Source: an uncultured Acidobacteriota bacterium
GTDB lineage: Bacteria > Acidobacteriota > Terriglobia > UBA7540
NCBI GenBank assembly: GCA_963804995.1
Contig: CAWDSK010000009.1
Location: 256,001 to 320,000 of the forward strand
Reading direction: 5' to 3'
Length of the DNA stretch: 64,000 nt
Position 1 is the stretch's first letter; each line of letters opens with the position of its first letter. The position numbers were made by a program, and so were the translations under genes. This document shows positions 4,644-38,498 of this stretch, in pieces. The notes below the pieces were generated by a model, which saw only the letters and a program-made list of their open reading frames with translations, did no database searches and was not told the DNA's origin.

Positions 4644-4989
4644 GAGAAAAGCCTCCTTGAGGAATATCTAGTCATATAACTAGATATCAGAAGACTGGCT
4701 TTTCTGCAAGTAAATACTTTCCGACAGCCTTTATCTAGTTAAAGGCCAAAGTCCAGGGTCCGATCAGATCGGACCATCGGAGTCCAGAAATCGGAGGCGG
4801 GTGAGGAGGTAGGGCTCGGCATCGCGTTTTCGCTTAATCTACGCCTGCAGGCCCGCGACTTTTTGTCATAAGTGGGACAGTCCCACTTGTTGCTCTTAGC
4901 GGGGCATAGCGAGCGAGGTCCCACTTATTTCCCCAGCTTCATGCGTTTTTCCGTTGATTTTTCGTCAAGGACTCAAACGCACTACACTC

Positions 4990-6270
4990 CTACACAATCT
5001 CCTCGTGCTCAGCGTCCCAAGTCACTCGACGGCGCTCGCGATAAGATCGAATCGCCATCTGGCAGGCGATGGCCGCATTGAAGCCGAGTTCAAAGGGGCA
5101 ATTGGGTTGCTTGCGGGTGCGCATGCAATCGAAGAAGTTCGCAAAGTGAACGTCGGTCCCGTCATCCCGGCCAACAATGTCGGGAACCATGGACTCTGCG
5201 GGCGGAGGAGGCGCCGCAGGAGCGCCGGGAGTCGCCGGTCTGTGCCCCTGGCCTTCGGCGATGTACTCAGCACTAAACCGGCCGCGGATCACCGTTCCCT
5301 TGGTCCCCAGCAGGAAGTCGTCTTCCGCTTTGTAGTGGCGATTCCCGAACCCGGAATTCCAGGTGAAGAGGATCTTCTCCGACATCTCCATGGAAACGTC
5401 CATGGTGTCGGGCACTTCCATCCCGGGTGAAAGGTAATTGGCCCCGCTCATGGTCACCGCGGCAGGCGGCTTGAGGTCCAGCACCTTGGACCAGAAGCCC
5501 ACTTGGTGAACCATATTCTCAAACACGTTGCCACCGGCGTAATCCCAGAAGAAGCGCCAATTGATGACCCGGTTGGGATCGAATTCGCGCGGCGCGGATT
5601 CTCCCTGGAACATCTTCCAATCCACATGGGCGAGATCGCAATCGGCAGGAATCTCGCGCTTCCAGCCCCCGTAGCGCGCATTGCGCCACATGTGAGTGTG
5701 GATACCGGTGATGTCTCCCATCTTGTCCGGCGCGGCCAGTTCCTTCACCTTGCAGAAAACGTCGGCGCTGGTCGATTGCATGCCCACCTGCACGACGCGG
5801 TCAGAATCTTTAAACGCCCGCTGCATGCGCCGCGCGTGGTCAGGATTGAAGGCCATGGTCTTTTCCTGGTAAACGTCCTTGCCCGCTTGAATGGCCGGCA
5901 CAAAGTTCAGCGCGTGCTGGTGCTGCGGGGTCACAATCACCACCGCGTCAATGGATTTGTCATCCAGAAGCTTGCGGAAGTCCTGGTAAGTCTTGGCCCC
6001 GGGCGCGATGGTCTTGATTTCATCGAGGCGGCGCGTGTAGACATCGGCCGCGGCGACGCATTCAACATTGGGAGACTTCAAGGCCGCGCGCAGATCCTCC
6101 TGGGCGCGGTCTCCACAGCCAATCATCCCAAACCGAATGCGATCGTTCGCGCCGAACACCCGCTGGGGCTCAGCGAGAAAGGTAATCCCACTCATCGCCG
6201 CCAGACTCGCCCCGGCGGTCGCGCCACCTTTCAAGAAATCCCGGCGCGTTACTGCTGATTGCTTTGACAT
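4990..6270 (-). CDS. Gfo/Idh/MocA-family oxidoreductase with Tat signal
   Basis: TRRDFLK Tat motif; IRFGMIGCG, IDAVVIVTPQHQH, GKDVYQEKTM. Confidence 0.9.
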   Translation of the reverse strand: MSKQSAVTRRDFLKGGATAGASLAAMSGITFLAEPQRVFGANDRIRFGMIGCGDRAQEDLRAALKSPNVECVAAADVYTRRLDEIKTIAPGAKTYQDFRKLLDDKSIDAVVIVTPQHQHALNFVPAIQAGKDVYQEKTMAFNPDHARRMQRAFKDSDRVVQVGMQSTSADVFCKVKELAAPDKMGDITGIHTHMWRNARYGGWKREIPADCDLAHVDWKMFQGESAPREFDPNRVINWRFFWDYAGGNVFENMVHQVGFWSKVLDLKPPAAVTMSGANYLSPGMEVPDTMDVSMEMSEKILFTWNSGFGNRHYKAEDDFLLGTKGTVIRGRFSAEYIAEGQGHRPATPGAPAAPPPPAESMVPDIVGRDDGTDVHFANFFDCMRTRKQPNCPFELGFNAAIACQMAIRSYRERRRVTWDAEHEEIV

Positions 6271-29290: not shown

Positions 29291-31203
29291 GTTGCGGTAG
29301 GGATACCGGTTACCCGGTACCCCCCGCACGGATCCGTACGTGCGCTGGTTAGCGCATACGGCTCTTATCTCGGATGTGTGGCGGCGAACCGTTGGGATGG
29401 CCAAGGATGCACAACGTGCGGAGCAGGCAACCAGCAGGCCGCAAGCTTCCCCAGTCGGTCCCAGTTGAGGCGGTGGCGTTGACTGCGTTGACGCAGTTGT
29501 GTTCGCCACAGTCGGGTCAACCGTTCCCGAAAGATTCGCAGGCGGTCGAGGTTTCCCGGTACCGCGTGATAGTTGAAGTAGCCTTGCACGACCGACCGGA
29601 GCCATTTACCCGTATCCGCGATGGGATCGTGCCGACGCTGCCGGAGTTGTTGCTTGAGTTCCTGCAACTTCCCCCGCAGGCGCTTGCTGATCGTCTTCCG
29701 CTTCACGGTAAATTGCCCCCTCCGGTTCTTCCCGCTGATATGCGTGAAGCCCAGAAAGTCGAACGTCTCCGGCTTACCTTCTCCTCTCCGTTTCCGGTAA
29801 AGTTCGGCAAACGGCCCGAACTCGATCCGGCGCGTTTTGTCAGGATGCAGTTCCAATCCAAACTTCCCCACCCGCTCCCGGAAATCCTCCAGAAAGCGGT
29901 CGGCTTCCGTCTGCGATTGGAATCCAAGGACCGTATCGTCGGCATACCGCACCACGACCACGTCTCCCCGGGCGTGCTTCTTGCGCCACGCCTGCACCCA
30001 CAGGTCAAAGACGTAGTGCAGATAGATATTCGCCAGCAGGGGCGAGACCACCGCCCCTTGTGGCGTACCCATCTCCGTCTCCGACCATTCGCCTTCCTCC
30101 CTCACCCCGGCTTTCAGCCATTTCTGGATGAGCCGGAGAATCCGGGGGTCGGCGACGCGATGCTGCACGAACTTGAGCATCCATTCGTGGGATATCGAAT
30201 CGAAAAATCCACGAATGTCCGCGTCAAGAACGTAGTTCACGTGCTTCACCGTGAGCGCGTACGAGAGCGCGTCCAGCGCTTGATGCTGGCTGCATCCCGG
30301 TCGAAAGCCATACGAGAAGCCCAGAAAGTCTTCCTCGTAAATCGCATTGAGGATGGTGACCACGGCCTGTTGGACGATCTTGTCCTCCAGTGCCGCAACC
30401 CCCAACGGACGTTGCCGCCCGTCGCCTTTCGGGATATACGCCCTTCGCGAGGGCTTCGCTCGGAATGCTCCGCGGTGGACCCGGCTGTGCAGATCGACGA
30501 GTCGACCTTCCAGCCCGCTTTCATACTCCTGCCACGTCATGCCGTCTACTCCCGGTGCAGCTTTTCGCTTCAAGGCGTAAAAGCTTTCCCGCAGCAGATC
30601 GACCGTTAAGTGGTGGAGCAAGGCCGTGAACTTCATCTCCCTGTGTTCCTTCGCGGCTTTCCGCACACCCGCGAGTCCCTGGGACACGCGTGCCCCGCTC
30701 TGTGTCGGGTGCGTGTTAGGCCAACGGGTGTTCTCCTTGATCAGCGGCCTTCCCTCCTCATTCTCCGCCAACGGCTTCCCGTCTTTGTTCAAATGATTCA
30801 TCGGTACTGTTCCGCTGTCCGACTCCTCGAGAGCGTGCAGGCGGGCTGTACGGCCATCGCCTTTTCCCGCCGTCCGGCCACGATCTACGGCGGCCGGCGC
30901 CTCCGAGGTCTCCCGGTTCTCGTGCAGAAAGTGTCTAGGCGTGTCTGGGGTCTACGACTACGCAGGACTGTGCCGGAACTCGCGTTGGCGTCCCGGCCTC
31001 ATGTTGCCTTCCGTTTAGTCTGAAAACGTCGGCGTCCTGATTGGACATTTTCGAAGCTCAATACCCAGCCCACCTATTCCCCTGTTTACGCTTCACCGTG
31101 CGCCTCACGACGCCCAGCGCAAAACTCGGGGCCGAGTGGATCGCTGCTCCTTCCTCGTGAGAAATTTTCATTCTCTGCTTTCTGCCGGTTTATCCCGGCG
31201 CAC
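29291..31203 (-). mobile_element. Complete group II intron
   Basis: 5' GTGCG at 31203; 34-nt domain V GAGCCGTATGCG..CGTACGGATC (29364-29331); domain VI hairpin ending ..CTACCGCAAC; EBS1 loop at 31017-31022. Confidence 0.93.
29365..30801 (-). CDS. ltrA: Group II intron reverse transcriptase/maturase (no HNH domain evident)
   Basis: APGVDG, RPLG..EDKIVQ, SYGFRPG, DADI..FFD, GTPQG, RYADD, FDFLGF; the true start may be a downstream GTG. Confidence 0.95.
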   Translation of the reverse strand: MNHLNKDGKPLAENEEGRPLIKENTRWPNTHPTQSGARVSQGLAGVRKAAKEHREMKFTALLHHLTVDLLRESFYALKRKAAPGVDGMTWQEYESGLEGRLVDLHSRVHRGAFRAKPSRRAYIPKGDGRQRPLGVAALEDKIVQQAVVTILNAIYEEDFLGFSYGFRPGCSQHQALDALSYALTVKHVNYVLDADIRGFFDSISHEWMLKFVQHRVADPRILRLIQKWLKAGVREEGEWSETEMGTPQGAVVSPLLANIYLHYVFDLWVQAWRKKHARGDVVVVRYADDTVLGFQSQTEADRFLEDFRERVGKFGLELHPDKTRRIEFGPFAELYRKRRGEGKPETFDFLGFTHISGKNRRGQFTVKRKTISKRLRGKLQELKQQLRQRRHDPIADTGKWLRSVVQGYFNYHAVPGNLDRLRIFRERLTRLWRTQLRQRSQRHRLNWDRLGKLAACWLPAPHVVHPWPSQRFAATHPR

Positions 31204-32258: not shown

Positions 32259-32424
32259 GGTGCTGTCCTAATTTAAACGTAACGCCCCGATGCATCGGGG
32301 CTCAATGCCGGCTGGAAGCCAGCGCTACATCTGAAATTAGGACAGCATCTGAATTGACCCCCCATTGACAGCGCTCCCCCCTGGTGCTAGTTTCATTTGC
32401 GTTGTAGGTTCTTTGACAACTGAT

Positions 32425-32608
32425 GTTCCTGCGGTGCCCCGTTCGTACCACGGGGGAAAAGGAAAGGCCGTGCGAATCGGCTGCGGTCCCGCCACTGTAA
32501 TCGGTGAGCCGCATCCTCTCAGGCGAAGTTGCCAGCCACTGTTCTGCCATTGGCAGATTGGGAAGGCTGAGGATGAGGTGTTGACCCGGAAGCCAGGAAA
32601 CCTGCCCA
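32425..32608 (+). promoter_or_regulatory. Cobalamin riboswitch
   Basis: GGTGC..AAAAGGAA..TGCGAAT..CCCGCCACTGTA..GCCACTG..GGGAAGG..AAGCCAGGAAACCTGCC (B12 box) upstream of a TonB receptor; boundaries approximate. Confidence 0.9.
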
Positions 32609-32822
32609 GGAATTTTCTCTCAGCCTAACTCTTCTACGGAAAGAGTCCTGAGGAAGACTGCGAAGCCTTCCGATTCCGTTTTTGGGGATGGGAAGGCTTT
32701 TTCGTTCTCACCCTCTGGATTCTTTCCGAGCGCCCCGTCGTAAGAGCGGGGAGAAGGAGTCTCGTGTGACCAAGTGCGAATCCACAGGCCGATTATCTCT
32801 ACCGGCCAATCCAAGAAAAGAG

Positions 32823-35111
32823 ATGCCGGCATCGATCAAGATTGCCCGGCCGGCGATCCTGCTGGGCTGGCTATGCGTGTTCCTTGGCGCGACGGGCGCG
32901 CAGGCGGCAACCCTGGCAGGGACTGTGTTCGACCCCAGTGGCAGTGCGGTCCCCAAAGCCCACGTTATCCTGCTTAAATCCATGGTGGTCATGGACGAAA
33001 AGCAAACCGCTTCCAATGGAGCGTACGAATTTCAAAACCTCGAGGACGGGTCCTACCAGCTAGTGGCCTATGCGCCGGGCCTCGCCGCCGCTCCCTCCGA
33101 AGTGGAAGTTCGCGGTGCGGAAATCCGCACCCTTGATCTGCATCTGCAGTTGAGCGCCGTCCAGCAGCAGGTGGTGGTATCGGCTTCGCTCGAAGACGCC
33201 CTGGCCTCAGAAGTCGGCGCCTCCGTCTCCGTGGTCACCGGGCAGGACATCAAGGATCGCGCCGCGTTAAACGTGTTGGACGTCCTGGGCGGAATCCCCG
33301 GCGTTGAGGTGAGCCAGGCGGGCCGCTATGGAGGCGTGACCGGTGTCTACGTGCGCGGGGGTGAATCCAATTACAATCTGGTGATGGTGGACGGCATCGA
33401 GCTGAATGAGTTCGGCGGCAGCTTTGATTTCGCTCCGCTCCCTGCCGACGGGGTGGAGCGCGTGGAGGTGACGCGCAGTCCGGAAAGCGCCCTCTATGGC
33501 CCGGGTGCCGTTACCAGTGTTATCAATATCGTGACCACGCAGGGTGAGGGCGTTCCGCATTTTACAGTTCAGGCGGAAGGCGGGAGCTTTTACACGCGCC
33601 GTTTTGTGGTGGGCGGAAGCGGCCTGGACCACGGCCTGAGCTGGGGCTTCGATGTTTCCCGGCTGAACTCCGACGGGGTCGTTACCAACGATCAATACCG
33701 CAATCAATCGGCCTTCCTGAGCTTCGGCTATCACCGCAGCCCGCGCCGCCGCCTGGATTTCCATTTCTTCGGCAACGCCAATGACGCCGGAGCGCCCGGG
33801 CCCTATGGATCGGATCCCGACCAGCTCTACGATGCTCCCATCTACCCCGGAGGTCCGACCGACAGGCAAGCGGGCCTGCTTACTCGCGACAAGCAGAACC
33901 TGTTTGGATGGGAGGGCAGTTACTCCGAGCAAATCACCTCGAATTTCCGGCAGGTCACTACCGGCAGCGTGTCCACCAATGACTATTACTTCAGCTCACC
34001 CCTGGGAGATTCCTACTCCAACAATCTGCGCGGCGTCCTGAACACCCGCAGCGAAGTGGCAATCTCCAACAAAGATTTCTTTGTGGCGGGGTTTGAGTAC
34101 AACCGCGAACAGGTGAAAGACACTTACATCTCGGATTCGAATGGCGCCCCCTTTGTCCTCCCCCGCACCAGTTTGGCTGTCTTCGCGGAAAATCGTTGGA
34201 GCCCCACACACCGCCTTTACCTTACCACGGGGTTCCGCGTGGATGATTTGAGGACGCACGCGCTGCCGCCCGATGATTCCGCCGGCCGGCCACTGCTTTC
34301 ACCCAGCACCATTGTCAAAGTGAATCCGCGCGTGTCGGGGGCGTATATGCTGCGCGAATCGCACGGCGGCTCGCTGGATGGAACCCGCCTGCACGCGAGC
34401 TTTGGCACCGGCATCCGCGCGCCGGATGGGTTCAATCTGGCTTTTACCAACAATCCTCATTTGAAACCGGAACAGAGCATCAGCTTCGATACCGGCATCG
34501 AACAGAGATTCTTCCAAGGCAAGGCGGTCTTGGACCTCACTTATTTCAATAACCATTTCAAAGACCAGATCGTGACGCTGGGGGGATCGCTGACGAACCT
34601 CAGCTCGTTTGCCTCTGATAATCTCGGCAACTCGCGGGCCCAGGGAGCGGAAATCTCATTCCAAATCCATCCCACCCGGTCGCTACAGATGTCGACGGAG
34701 TATACCCGCGACAACACGGCGGTGCTCTCTCTCAATGGATCATCGGAAGTGCTGGCGCCGCTCCAGGTGGGACAACAACTGTTCCGCCGGCCGCGCGATT
34801 CGGGGGCTTACAATCTGACCTGGCATCACGGCCGCCTGATGCTCAATACCAATGCGTACATCCGCGGGACGGTTCTGGATATCGAGCCGAACGATGGAAC
34901 CTTTGCTTGCACTCTCGGCCTGCCCTGCCTGTTCACGAATAAGGGTTACACGCGCGTGGACGGTGGGTTCTCCTACCGCTTGCCGCGGGGCGTGGAAATA
35001 TACGGCCGGCTCGATAACATCCTGAATCGGAAATACGAGGAAGTTTTCGGGTACCCGTCGCTGCCCTTCAACTTTCTCACCGGCGTAAGATTTAGTTTTC
35101 CTGGACGGTAA
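32823..35111 (+). CDS. TonB-dependent receptor, BtuB-like, with N-terminal carboxypeptidase-regulatory-like domain
   Basis: Plug motifs VVVSAS, VRGG, VERVEV..SALYG; LKPEQS; N..NRKYE; lies downstream of the B12 riboswitch. Confidence 0.9.
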   Translation: MPASIKIARPAILLGWLCVFLGATGAQAATLAGTVFDPSGSAVPKAHVILLKSMVVMDEKQTASNGAYEFQNLEDGSYQLVAYAPGLAAAPSEVEVRGAEIRTLDLHLQLSAVQQQVVVSASLEDALASEVGASVSVVTGQDIKDRAALNVLDVLGGIPGVEVSQAGRYGGVTGVYVRGGESNYNLVMVDGIELNEFGGSFDFAPLPADGVERVEVTRSPESALYGPGAVTSVINIVTTQGEGVPHFTVQAEGGSFYTRRFVVGGSGLDHGLSWGFDVSRLNSDGVVTNDQYRNQSAFLSFGYHRSPRRRLDFHFFGNANDAGAPGPYGSDPDQLYDAPIYPGGPTDRQAGLLTRDKQNLFGWEGSYSEQITSNFRQVTTGSVSTNDYYFSSPLGDSYSNNLRGVLNTRSEVAISNKDFFVAGFEYNREQVKDTYISDSNGAPFVLPRTSLAVFAENRWSPTHRLYLTTGFRVDDLRTHALPPDDSAGRPLLSPSTIVKVNPRVSGAYMLRESHGGSLDGTRLHASFGTGIRAPDGFNLAFTNNPHLKPEQSISFDTGIEQRFFQGKAVLDLTYFNNHFKDQIVTLGGSLTNLSSFASDNLGNSRAQGAEISFQIHPTRSLQMSTEYTRDNTAVLSLNGSSEVLAPLQVGQQLFRRPRDSGAYNLTWHHGRLMLNTNAYIRGTVLDIEPNDGTFACTLGLPCLFTNKGYTRVDGGFSYRLPRGVEIYGRLDNILNRKYEEVFGYPSLPFNFLTGVRFSFPGR

Positions 35112-36084: not shown

Positions 36085-36333
36085 TCAGATCAACCCGCCA
36101 TCTTTGTGATGGGTTCGCCAGCAATAGAGCTGTTCGACAGCCACTGAAAGCACACAGACCCCGCCCGCGATAGAGACGCTCACCTCAAGCAGATACTGCA
36201 GCATATCTTCGGGGCTGGGGGCGCGGAGCATAATCGCCAAAGCAATTCCGTGACCCACTGCCCAAAGGCCAATAATGGCGCACAGAATCAGACTCACAAC
36301 ACGCAGGGCGGATTTAAGCATAGCCACCCACAC
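36085..36333 (-). CDS. Small 2-TM hypothetical protein
   Basis: Two hydrophobic helices in an 82-aa ORF. Confidence 0.45.
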   Translation of the reverse strand: MWVAMLKSALRVVSLILCAIIGLWAVGHGIALAIMLRAPSPEDMLQYLLEVSVSIAGGVCVLSVAVEQLYCWRTHHKDGGLI

Positions 36334-36514: not shown

Positions 36515-36991
36515 TTACAGGTTCAGCAGATAATCGGAAGCCGTCAGGTTTCCGAAGCGAACACTATTGACTCGCTCACCCACGACATTTGCGAAGTACT
36601 CAAGAATCACCGTCAGCTTCAAAGCGGCCGGTGTCTCGCGGAACCTCAGCCAGTGTCGCACGGTGAGCAAGAACAGAAACACTTTGAAGTAGAGCATCAA
36701 GAGCTGTTCTTCGTAGCTATAACGTTGGTTAACGTTGGCTGCGTTTTTGAGGAGATAAGTCAGAGCCAGAAAATCACATTTGAGTGTCATCATCAGCCGC
36801 GGGTAATCAACCGGAGCGCCGAAGTCCGCGAGTGCCTTCCGAACCGACGGAAATTCCAATCGATTGGCATTGACGATTGATTGGAAATATTCCTGCGAAA
36901 ACTGCCGTCGCAAAACCTTCTGGCAGGCAGCTTGGAGATAGAAGAAGAAGAGGGCTGTGGATAAAATCAAAATTAGGGTGGTCATAATCAT
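36515..36991 (-). CDS. Membrane-anchored hypothetical protein, third gene of the peptide operon
   Basis: GAGGTG RBS; N-terminal TM plus a second hydrophobic segment; starts ~21 nt after the 7-TM gene. Confidence 0.75.
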   Translation of the reverse strand: MIMTTLILILSTALFFFYLQAACQKVLRRQFSQEYFQSIVNANRLEFPSVRKALADFGAPVDYPRLMMTLKCDFLALTYLLKNAANVNQRYSYEEQLLMLYFKVFLFLLTVRHWLRFRETPAALKLTVILEYFANVVGERVNSVRFGNLTASDYLLNL

Positions 36992-37012
36992 ATTCCACCT
37001 CACTTCAACCGG

Positions 37013-37774
37013 CTATTCAGCGCTAGCCGCAACCAAGCCTGCCTGCTTTCCAAGCAGCACTCGAGCCGGAGCTGCTTCTGGTGTTTTGACGACGGCATAG
37101 ACCCACATCGACAACATTCCCAGCGTGCATACGGGTCCCAGGAAGTTGAGAAGTATGCGGGAGAAGTTCTCGCCAGACGTCAAGTGATACAGCGCCAAGC
37201 AGGCGGCCTCGCCTGCGAACTGGATTCCCATTCCACATACCAACATGCTGAGCTGGTCATCCTCAATCGCCAACTGTTGGATCATCAAGTAAAGCATGGT
37301 GTTCAGAACCAGGCAGGTGAAGTAGAGGTTCTGACTAAATTCCACAATGAACACTGATCCCCGGGCGGAGAGTTGCGTATAGTTGCGGGTAAGAGAAAGG
37401 AGCGTAACTCCCACGACCAGAATAAAGACGAATACCAGCAGCATCCGGACAAAGCGCCACAACTTCTCTTCCCTGGTACAGGCGCGGCGGAAGAAGCCAC
37501 AAATCACTAGAAACGCGCCCAGGGCCAGAACAACGTCCGTCAACCAATAGAAAGACGCGAACTGCGCCGAGGTCCGGCCGAAATAATTGAGGGCAGCAGA
37601 ACGAGCTACACCGTCGAGCAAAAAAAGCCCTAACACATAAAGGCCAAGGCCTTTGAGGCGGCGCCACCTTCCTTGTCCTGCCAGTAGTACACAGAGCAGG
37701 ACCTCCAATCCATATCCCGCGTATTGCAGGCCGAAAGAAATGATCTTCTCACCCATAGGCGACACGGAAACCAT
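37013..37774 (-). CDS. Orphan ~7-TM membrane protein
   Basis: Seven hydrophobic segments counted by eye, short loops, no soluble domain. Confidence 0.8.
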   Translation of the reverse strand: MVSVSPMGEKIISFGLQYAGYGLEVLLCVLLAGQGRWRRLKGLGLYVLGLFLLDGVARSAALNYFGRTSAQFASFYWLTDVVLALGAFLVICGFFRRACTREEKLWRFVRMLLVFVFILVVGVTLLSLTRNYTQLSARGSVFIVEFSQNLYFTCLVLNTMLYLMIQQLAIEDDQLSMLVCGMGIQFAGEAACLALYHLTSGENFSRILLNFLGPVCTLGMLSMWVYAVVKTPEAAPARVLLGKQAGLVAASAE

Positions 37775-37828
37775 CCGGTCCCCCCGCGTGCTCCCGTGTC
37801 GCTCAAAATGGGCGTCGGAAGCAACTCA

Positions 37829-38038
37829 CTACGCTGGAGGCGGCAGCGGCATAGGCGTTGTGCCGATTCTCACCGCTCTTGGTGGCGGCAGCGGCATTGG
37901 GGTTGTACCGATGCCAACTGCTTTGGGCGGCGGCAGAGGCATAGGGGTCGTGCCAATGCCAAGAACACTCTGCCGAAGCGACACACTGCTCAGCACTATC
38001 AATAGTGCGAGCACAAACGCCAAAATTGTGTTTTTCAT
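37829..38038 (-). CDS. Secreted repeat peptide precursor (3x IGTTPMPLPPP)
   Basis: GGAGGAG RBS; MKN plus hydrophobic signal; three cores differing only at synonymous sites. Confidence 0.85.
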   Translation of the reverse strand: MKNTILAFVLALLIVLSSVSLRQSVLGIGTTPMPLPPPKAVGIGTTPMPLPPPRAVRIGTTPMPLPPPA

Positions 38039-38087
38039 GGACTCTCCTCCAGAAGGTTTTGCAAGAATGACAGCTTTCTGGAATGAG

Positions 38088-38116
38088 AGCCTATGCGATT
38101 ATTTAACCCAAGTCAA
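38088..38116 (-). promoter_or_regulatory. Candidate sigma70 promoter of the peptide operon
   Basis: TTGACT-N17-TAGGCT about 50 nt upstream of the ATG. Confidence 0.45.
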
Positions 38117-38498
38117 TATACTTCCCTACACTTCTGAACCGCTATTATTTTGGCCCATAAGGACCCAATGTCAAGCAAAATCCACAAGATTCAACACTTG
38201 ATTCTCTTTACCAGACTAAAGGTCTCCCCGTACTTTGGCAATAGTACGGGGGTACTGGTCGGAGAATAGAAGCTGTTGGTGCAACAACGTGGTGCTCATT
38301 TGCGCGGACCCGTCTCGTGCGAGCCTGTCGGCAATAAAAGCCACGGAATAAGTCCAGCTATCCCCTTTCGTGCACTATCCCTCAAGTAATTTACAAATGA
38401 CGCTTGGAGCCCCCTGAAATCTTCTACACCGTGAGTTGACCCAACCGGGTATGAATGGCATCATACATTAAAGTTCAAGGTATCGTGGAGAGTGTTGT

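Follow-up and report, generated by a model that had tools for sequence, protein, structure and literature searches.

The subject of this report is a three-gene cassette on the minus strand of a 64,000-nucleotide (nt) stretch of DNA (the window) from the genome of an uncultured Acidobacteriota bacterium. Its open reading frames (ORFs) follow one another on the same strand and encode, in this order, a small precursor with several identical cores, a stand-alone seven-transmembrane (7-TM) protein and a membrane-anchored partner protein (Table 1). An initial annotation, made from the sequence, had taken these genes for a candidate peptide-signalling system, an interpretation that as a whole is partly supported by the present analysis. 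The cassette reaches beyond positions 36515..38038, with promoter elements extending to 38174, and an alternative ATG of the 7-TM ORF lies at 37774. No Pfam family was found for the precursor, the 7-TM protein or the partner, and none of them scored above the cut-off in NCBIfam, where only MASE3_PAS_HK appeared, at E 0.019. Scans with the same two collections revealed no AgrB, ComQ or peptidase-ABC (ATP-binding cassette) families in the cassette and no enzymes that modify or macrocyclise ribosomally synthesised and post-translationally modified peptides (RiPPs) in the window neighbourhood. Neither RiPP enzymes nor histidine kinases occur among the recurrent neighbours of 61 homologous loci; the initial annotation, too, had recognised no RiPP enzyme, AgrB, kinase or ABC exporter.

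Table 1. Positions of cassette features in the window and, in the last three rows, of the second cassette of the same genome (locus L099)
Feature	Position	Strand	Basis
Multi-core precursor gene, 69 aa	37829..38038	-	ORF sequence; homologues at 58/61 subfamily loci
Precursor ribosome-binding site (RBS), GGAGGAG	38044..38050	-	sequence; GGAG/GAGG retained among homologues
Putative Sec-type signal peptide, residues 1-27, end V-L-G	37958..38038	-	predicted -3/-1 site
Core 1, IGTTPMPLPPP	37925..37957	-	sequence
Core 2, IGTTPMPLPPP	37880..37912	-	sequence
Core 3, IGTTPMPLPPP	37835..37867	-	sequence; Arg at -1, an exception to the small-residue rule
Post-stop segment that could pair alternatively with the hairpin 5′ arm	37816..37825	-	weak support
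Intergenic hairpin, arms 37792-37805 and 37756-37769	37756..37805	-	pairing and covariation in 43 sequences
Stand-alone 7-TM protein, 247 aa, candidate receptor	37013..37756	-	predicted model, fold searches, loop charges, conservation
Partner protein, 158 aa, candidate transducer	36515..36991	-	homologues, predicted model, synteny
Distal sigma70-like promoter (putative), TTGACA-16-CAAAAT	38147..38174	-	consensus scan, 10/12 matches
Proximal sigma70-like promoter, TTGACT-N17-TAGGCT	38088..38116	-	sequence match, recurrent in relatives
Type II cassette, peptide ORF	6059-6121	-	
Type II cassette, 7-TM ORF	5240-6040	-	
Type II cassette, partner ORF	4713-5243	-	

Of 101 related genomes, 66 have the 7-TM gene, mostly as a single copy; within the family, it is found in 57 of the 60 other genomes. 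The subfamily set used below comprises 61 loci (L001-L030 and L061-L091; two genomes supply two loci each). At 58 of them a repeat peptide is encoded directly upstream of the 7-TM gene, which is the association that the initial annotation had proposed to look for; contig ends truncate the remaining three loci. Among the 58 peptides, two are partial and one is frameshifted. The partner gene follows the 7-TM gene at 60 of 61 loci and is more conserved than the latter (65–84% identity at 29 of 29 non-self loci), and flanking genes are also common to many loci of the subfamily. At a few loci (L088, L089, L069, L021) we observed 7-TM genes that are frameshifted or interrupted by a stop next to an intact peptide gene, along with one frameshifted peptide gene; these could be assembly errors or signal-blind variants.

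The precursor has the strong RBS and the three IGTTPMPLPPP cores initially described. Its N-terminus consists of a basic n-region and a hydrophobic h-region, and this leader is conserved in the alignment of homologues. The 11-codon cores differ from each other by 7 (copies 1 and 2), 4 (copies 2 and 3) and 6 (copies 1 and 3) bases, every one of which is a synonymous third-position change; the first two counts agree with those reported earlier. Among the 161 short ORFs of the genome with an RBS and a signal-like N-terminus, a repeated 8-mer occurs in the window precursor only and, since its layout also recurs in relatives, we do not attribute it to chance. Cores could be parsed at 53 of the 61 loci, where 131 adjacent repeat pairs contain 409 synonymous and 30 non-synonymous differences (pN/pS, the ratio of non-synonymous to synonymous differences, 0.03). 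The cores are thus under purifying selection and change in concert, and the earlier suggestion that selection acts on the peptide stands. Copy number varies from 1 to 17 per precursor, and 46 distinct 9-residue cores are found in the 53 loci; the variable positions are the same throughout one precursor and different between genomes, while the constancy of the core Gly and first Pro is uninformative, having been fixed by the search pattern.

Among 184 cores, 169 are directly preceded (position -1) by G, A or S, and in 156 position -3 is taken by one of V, A, L, T, G and S; this pattern resembles the -3/-1 rule of signal peptidase. With a small residue placed before Ile-Gly, the first residue of the mature peptide is most likely Ile, judging from this sequence pattern. 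The proposal that (K/R)AV spacers act as dibasic protease sites was rejected on the same counts: what is conserved is the small residue and not the basic spacer. Metatranscriptome contigs from two runs and studies are near-identical to the window over the peptide gene (37886-38112, 0 differences; 37733-38041, 4 differences); being assembled contigs, these matches are no proof of transcription.

Co-variation of core and receptor, another expectation of the initial annotation, was analysed at 49 loci with a core, a 7-TM protein and a partner, four frameshifted or cut receptors having been dropped, and with the 7-TM protein split at helix midpoints into outer and inner halves. With the inner half and the partner accounted for, core divergence follows the outer half (partial r 0.22, p 0.009); it does not follow the inner half (partial r 0.09, p 0.18). 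For the 25 loci within the genus, the outer half gives 0.30 (p 0.009) and the inner half 0.18 (p 0.058), and the raw correlation with the core is 0.43 for the outer half compared to 0.09 for the partner. Because the loci come from kin and are not independent, we regard this co-variation as supporting rather than decisive.

The 7-TM protein was aligned with 84 of its 141 phmmer matches. At locus L057 the 7-TM match was false. No column is invariant across the 84 homologues, the highest column counts for His and Cys are 17 and 28, and the GxG motif in TM6 lacks the Asp of GxGD proteases. Position 74 in TM3, acidic in 81 of 84 homologues, is the one conserved acid: none of the catalytic His/Cys/Glu/Asp sets of intramembrane hydrolases, taken from the exosortase, AgrB, CPBP, CREST and GxGD motifs, is found in the 84 sequences. 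The absence of an invariant residue, the low His and Cys counts and the Asp-less GxG argue against a protease. Of the two roles initially offered for the 7-TM protein, sensing the peptide or maturing it, the former is therefore favoured and the latter disfavoured. The protein has no soluble output domain, as noted before: none of the 141 homologues exceeds 314 aa, and no longer fused forms were found among proteins of 544–2000 aa, which is a weak test.

The AlphaFold2 (AF2) model of the 7-TM protein (predicted local distance difference test, pLDDT, 91.7) consists of seven long helices and a C-terminal helix. Loop charges point to an N-out/C-in orientation, with K/R-rich intracellular loops (ICL1 and ICL2) and C-tail and an acidic third inner loop. 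All 50 structural matches listed are proteins with a G-protein-coupled receptor (GPCR) fold and Z of 11–15.5, led by a designed GPCR-like fold (Z 15.5, root-mean-square deviation (rmsd) 4.0, 213 residues aligned) and including TAS1R2 (Z 14.5) and LYCHOS (Z 14.4); fungal Ste2 (7ad3) aligns with Z 12.1 and rmsd 4.6 over 225 residues at 9% identity. Identity in the GPCR alignments is 4–12% and, given that helical bundles reach Z 13–14 by common arrangement, we interpret these matches as a GPCR-like arrangement and not as homology or function. GPCR families are absent from the Pfam matches of the 84 members and from the comparison of their profile with Protein Data Bank (PDB) sequences, in which hyaluronan synthase alone was returned (E 0.04). 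The MASE3_PAS_HK profile reaches E 0.018 in 2 of the 84 members, far short of the cut-off, and there is no Pfam match; the 7-TM protein may be a remote relative of MASE3 or HisKA_7TM-like sensor domains. Microbial rhodopsins are not among the 50 structural matches listed, although a structural kinship is conceivable, and the predicted TM7 helix (residues 197–223) contains no Lys. Look-alikes in the ESM Atlas belong to Acidobacteriota clusters only. A separate fold search against viral proteins placed Gordonia and Mycobacterium phage membrane proteins on top (TM-score 0.55–0.63, E ~0.02), with herpesvirus GPCRs ranking below these uncharacterised phage proteins. A match to a characterised unrelated family, an outcome the initial annotation had named, was found for neither the 7-TM protein nor the partner.

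The partner has 1610 homologues, and the named ones are all from Terriglobia. Its AF2 model (pLDDT 78.7) shows one N-terminal membrane helix, basic residues and then an all-helical bundle, which is probably cytoplasmic. Foldseek gave no match at E ≤ 0.001, and no tetratricopeptide repeat (TPR) match or GTPase fold was seen (Pfam; AF2 model). The top structural matches are generic 3-4-helix bundles (Z ≤ 10.0; Rsd Z 7.9), which we did not accept as an indication of function. Synteny and predicted topology make the partner a candidate transducer.

Three parts of the system are new relative to the initial annotation: the promoter, a covarying hairpin and a second paralogous cassette. Of 48 upstream regions listed, 44 have a match of the TTGAC...TAxxxT kind (TTGAC-N17-TAGGCT-type) that lies 65–105 nt 5′ of the peptide start, and an element of the distal type (TTGAC...CAAAAT/GAAT) was recognised by eye upstream at many homologous loci. 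The intergenic interval from the peptide stop to the start of the 7-TM gene, alignable in 43 of the 61 loci, contains a conserved 14-bp hairpin whose 3′ arm covers the 7-TM start region. It is 84.9% paired (slid controls: 33–44%), both sides have changed in 13 of 14 pairs, and its pairing and covariation score was reached by 0 of 500 shuffles, with the reservation that the structure was drawn from the same 43 sequences on which it was scored, which favours it. RNAalifold gives 8 of the pairs. No Shine-Dalgarno (SD) sequence precedes the 7-TM gene, and in 6 of the 43 rows its start is uncertain because a standard start codon is absent at the aligned position. Support for a competing post-stop hairpin is weak: 74.7% of its cells are paired, a value that 20 of 500 shuffles attained. 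The two folds are near-isoenergetic in the window (-32.1 vs -30.3 kcal/mol, within 2 kcal/mol), and blocking the first 15 nt after the peptide stop favours the one that buries the start. The simplest reading is that the arrangement yields much peptide and little 7-TM protein, the translation of which the hairpin would lower, perhaps with translational coupling.

Relatives of the 7-TM protein were found with a profile in 21 of 301 genomes sampled across the phylum, mostly of the same class. HHalign tied the subfamily to five of six other groups at 82–99.7%; the link to the remaining, type II group is weak (21%, E 0.001). Distant 7-TM loci adjoin unrelated peptides that again combine a signal and prolines, for instance a KGPNVPPDPWDW core in 14 copies at L033; loci L051 and L054 have their peptide gene downstream of the 7-TM gene. 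In a distant subfamily in Acidobacteriaceae, which also bears out the upstream peptide, tandem peptide genes (1–6, each with a signal and a Pro-rich two-Cys core) stand separately ~300 nt upstream of the 7-TM gene at 51 of 52 loci, of which 49 were recognised by pattern and 2 by eye (the remaining locus is cut), and the carriers include cultured Tunturiibacter, Edaphobacter modestus and Granulicella. The 7-TM proteins at these loci (L161-L212) are ~300 aa long and have a cytoplasmic tail that is conserved. A partner gene is usually missing beside them, and the tail may replace the partner.

The source genome itself carries a second, distant cassette (type II, as opposed to the type I cassette of the window) on contig C6 near 1,500,000. 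Its peptide ORF encodes 20 aa, leaderless and Pro-rich (MLCSRRNPEGVGPMPMPPLA), and its partner has 176 aa; an apparent inverted repeat between peptide and 7-TM genes was noticed by eye. Type II cassettes are present in 43 of the 101 relatives and, at 30 of 30 loci, include a partner and a short Pro-rich ORF behind AGGAGGT, with repeated cores in two. An XRE-family regulator gene, assigned by helix-turn-helix matches below the Pfam cut-off, precedes peptide and 7-TM genes at 12 of 17 full-length XRE loci; of the other five, two are convergent and three lack a nearby 7-TM gene. The single XRE homologue of the source genome is not linked to the cassette (L100:1743-2585 (+), contig C3) and has a long C-terminal domain without a Pfam family, which is possibly S24/LexA-like; in other families, such regulator genes adjoin operons of peptide and 7-TM genes.

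We conclude that the cassette is a real and widespread system, the parts of which belong to no named family and the function of which we infer with good support. In our assessment it is probably a peptide-pheromone/receptor signalling system of Acidobacteriota that has not been described before. A sigma70-type promoter would produce a single transcript, from which the strongly translated precursor would be exported by Sec. Signal peptidase and a periplasmic or extracellular protease would then cleave after a small residue (V/A/L/T-X-G/A/S) and free several identical Pro-rich peptides that start with Ile-Gly and have a species-typical sequence, while the hairpin over the SD-less start would keep the 7-TM protein scarce. 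The latter may have a GPCR-like pocket in which the peptide binds from the outside, with the acidic residue 74 of TM3 as a possible anchor for the free N-terminus, and cytoplasmic loops that would relay the signal to the membrane-anchored helical partner. The response would be transcriptional, the output in related cassettes probably being the XRE-family regulator encoded directly upstream. We also lean, if only slightly, towards a broader view: a phylum-restricted family of stand-alone peptide receptors of GPCR-like fold with multi-core or tandem-precursor pheromones, a small membrane partner leading to XRE regulators and at least two channels per genome, that is, a bacterial counterpart of alpha-factor/Ste2 by convergence or deep homology.

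Several observations weigh against the signalling interpretation. Mantel tests over kin inflate significance, and the outer halves of membrane proteins evolve faster regardless. The Z scores of the 7-TM model are near the level that helical bundles attain anyway; the Foldseek search proposed initially does rank GPCRs first for this protein, with a best E of 0.03 and nothing at E ≤ 0.001. Core 3 of the window is preceded by Arg, breaking the small-residue rule, and the loci L042, L049 and L052 yielded no upstream peptide. The type II peptides lack a hydrophobic signal at all 30 loci, which a pure Sec-export model leaves unexplained. The partner has no detectable homology to those of other subfamilies (HHalign probability 0.5 for partner I against partner II and 0.2 against X) and is absent at several distant loci. 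Finally, the XRE regulator, considered as a dedicated output of the type I cassette, had to be rejected, since among the 60 family genomes its distribution (39) tracks the type II paralogue (37) and not type I (57).

Other explanations account for parts of these data. The 7-TM protein might mature or transport the peptide, as an AgrB-like protease or an exporter/importer, with the true receptor elsewhere. Substrate and enzyme would likewise be linked and co-vary, type II peptides without a signal sequence need some exit route, and conservation within the close 7-TM subfamily is 91% for C148 and C210; however, the 84 homologues show neither the His and Cys counts nor the TM6 Asp expected of such an enzyme, type I precursors have a Sec-type signal of their own, and only GPCR-fold proteins are among the structural matches listed, so we hold this explanation to be unlikely. 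A regulatory leader, in which SecM-like or polyproline stalling on the small ORF controls translation of the 7-TM protein and the partner via the hairpin and the peptide is no ligand, would explain the signal sequence, the PPP motifs, the covarying hairpin over the downstream start and the two near-isoenergetic folds, of which the burying one is favoured when the first post-stop nucleotides are blocked. The anatomy is shared with SecM, for which 10.1101/2023.09.02.556018 describes a signal sequence, a Pro-rich C-terminus and a downstream start in a stem-loop. The window peptide, however, has repeated cores and no RAGP/RAPP, its hairpin is wholly 3′ of the stop codon and outside the coding region, and no sec/yidC family is found among the genes downstream of the cassette (Pfam, NCBIfam). 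Non-proline core positions, uniform within and variable between genomes, follow the outer half of the receptor, and the separate, tandem, Cys-looped peptide genes of Acidobacteriaceae, like those downstream of the 7-TM gene at L051 and L054, do not fit a leader. We consider a leader function of this kind highly improbable, though translational coupling may be a secondary feature.

Were the precursor to stay in the membrane, its repeats could be presented to the 7-TM protein of the same or a touching cell, as a tethered ligand or as an identity tag that depends on contact. The c-region is often RR/RQ, which is unusual in cleavable signals, and species-typical cores would suit kin recognition. 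Yet the small residue before nearly all internal cores is understandable only with cleavage at internal sites, and the copy number (1 to 17) and the existence of leaderless forms and of tandem genes with one core each also speak against a tag, leaving it very unlikely. We are just as sceptical of the idea that the peptide is an unmodified, proline-rich bacteriocin to which the two membrane proteins confer immunity: a variable secreted peptide beside co-varying membrane proteins is a toxin-immunity layout too, but conflict loci are patchy, whereas this gene is mostly single-copy, present in nearly the whole family and flanked at many loci by the same genes. The cores, 9-12-mers, are neutral, conservation of the partner is high at every non-self locus compared, and frameshifted 7-TM genes stand beside intact peptide genes (L088, L089).

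Set against known systems, the proposed pheromone cassette would, by analogy, work most like alpha-factor/Ste2 in design and Rap-Phr in gene layout. The fungal MF-alpha precursor carries KR-EAEA spacers processed by Kex2 and Ste13. The fungal system and the cassette share identical tandem cores in a precursor exported by Sec (putatively so in the cassette) and a stand-alone 7-TM protein of GPCR topology, but the cassette lacks these spacers and any sequence homology (9% identity), has a helical membrane partner and no G protein (the genome was not searched for G proteins), and keeps its putative ligand and receptor genes in one operon. Intragenic pheromone duplications occur in fungi, according to PMC5199041, which also describes multiple cleavage, intragenic and whole-gene autoinducer duplications and allele diversity for Phr and NprX, with cytoplasmic receptors. 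Rap-Phr and NprR-NprX (RRNPP) resemble the cassette in the short secretion-signal ORF adjoining the receptor gene. They differ in that their receptors are cytoplasmic TPR proteins and the peptide is re-imported by Opp, whereas the neighbour here is an integral 7-TM protein, the repeats are homogenised and family-wide, and the host is diderm. With Agr, ComQXP and ComCDE the cassette shares a variable peptide whose changes track those in the outer portion of a multi-pass membrane protein, the sensor in those systems (pherotypes), but it has no histidine kinase domain (the longest of the 141 phmmer matches being only 314 aa), response regulator, AgrB/ComQ or ABC exporter, and its precursor is multi-core. 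Sensory rhodopsin-Htr pairs, as presented in PMC13466386, also consist of a stand-alone 7-TM sensor and a separate membrane-embedded transducer; the cassette differs from them by the missing TM7 Lys, the absence of rhodopsins among the 50 matches listed, a partner with one membrane helix and no methyl-accepting domain, and a proposed peptide ligand. The features that define Agr/Com, RRNPP, RiPP, rhodopsin and intramembrane-protease systems are lacking in the cassette, which shows no GPCR homology at the sequence level.

In the surroundings of the cassette, a two-helix membrane ORF of 82 aa lies 3′ of it (36085-36333, minus strand), and a related ORF seems to be present at ~20 loci. On the other side there is a divergently oriented acidobacterial VWA-domain gene (TIGR03436; 38499-39626, plus strand), a flank common to many loci of the family. 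Further away, the window contains a group II intron reverse transcriptase/maturase (RVT_1; 29365-30801, minus strand) and a TonB-dependent receptor gene (32682-35111, plus strand) followed by one for a diphthamide-synthase-family ATPase; the leader ahead of the receptor gene (32302-32680) is possibly a cobalamin riboswitch, judging by its motifs.

A literature search, with subscription journals and supplements outside its scope, found no description of the cassette and no peptide signalling system described for Acidobacteria. To our knowledge, it is histidine kinases or cytoplasmic TPR receptors that perceive the bacterial peptide signals described so far, almost all of which are from Gram-positive bacteria. 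If our interpretation is true, a stand-alone GPCR-like 7-TM peptide receptor in a diderm phylum would represent a third design and a new route for bacteria to signal to kin. It would also bear on the origin of GPCR-type receptors, a debate that a 2026 review frames around prokaryotic rhodopsins (PMC13466386). The system can be tested directly: the peptides would be short and unmodified, there are dozens of natural candidate ligand-receptor pairs, and cultured carriers of homologues exist (Tunturiibacter, Edaphobacter, Granulicella). Acidobacteria are abundant in soils, and this may be a way in which they signal to their kin.

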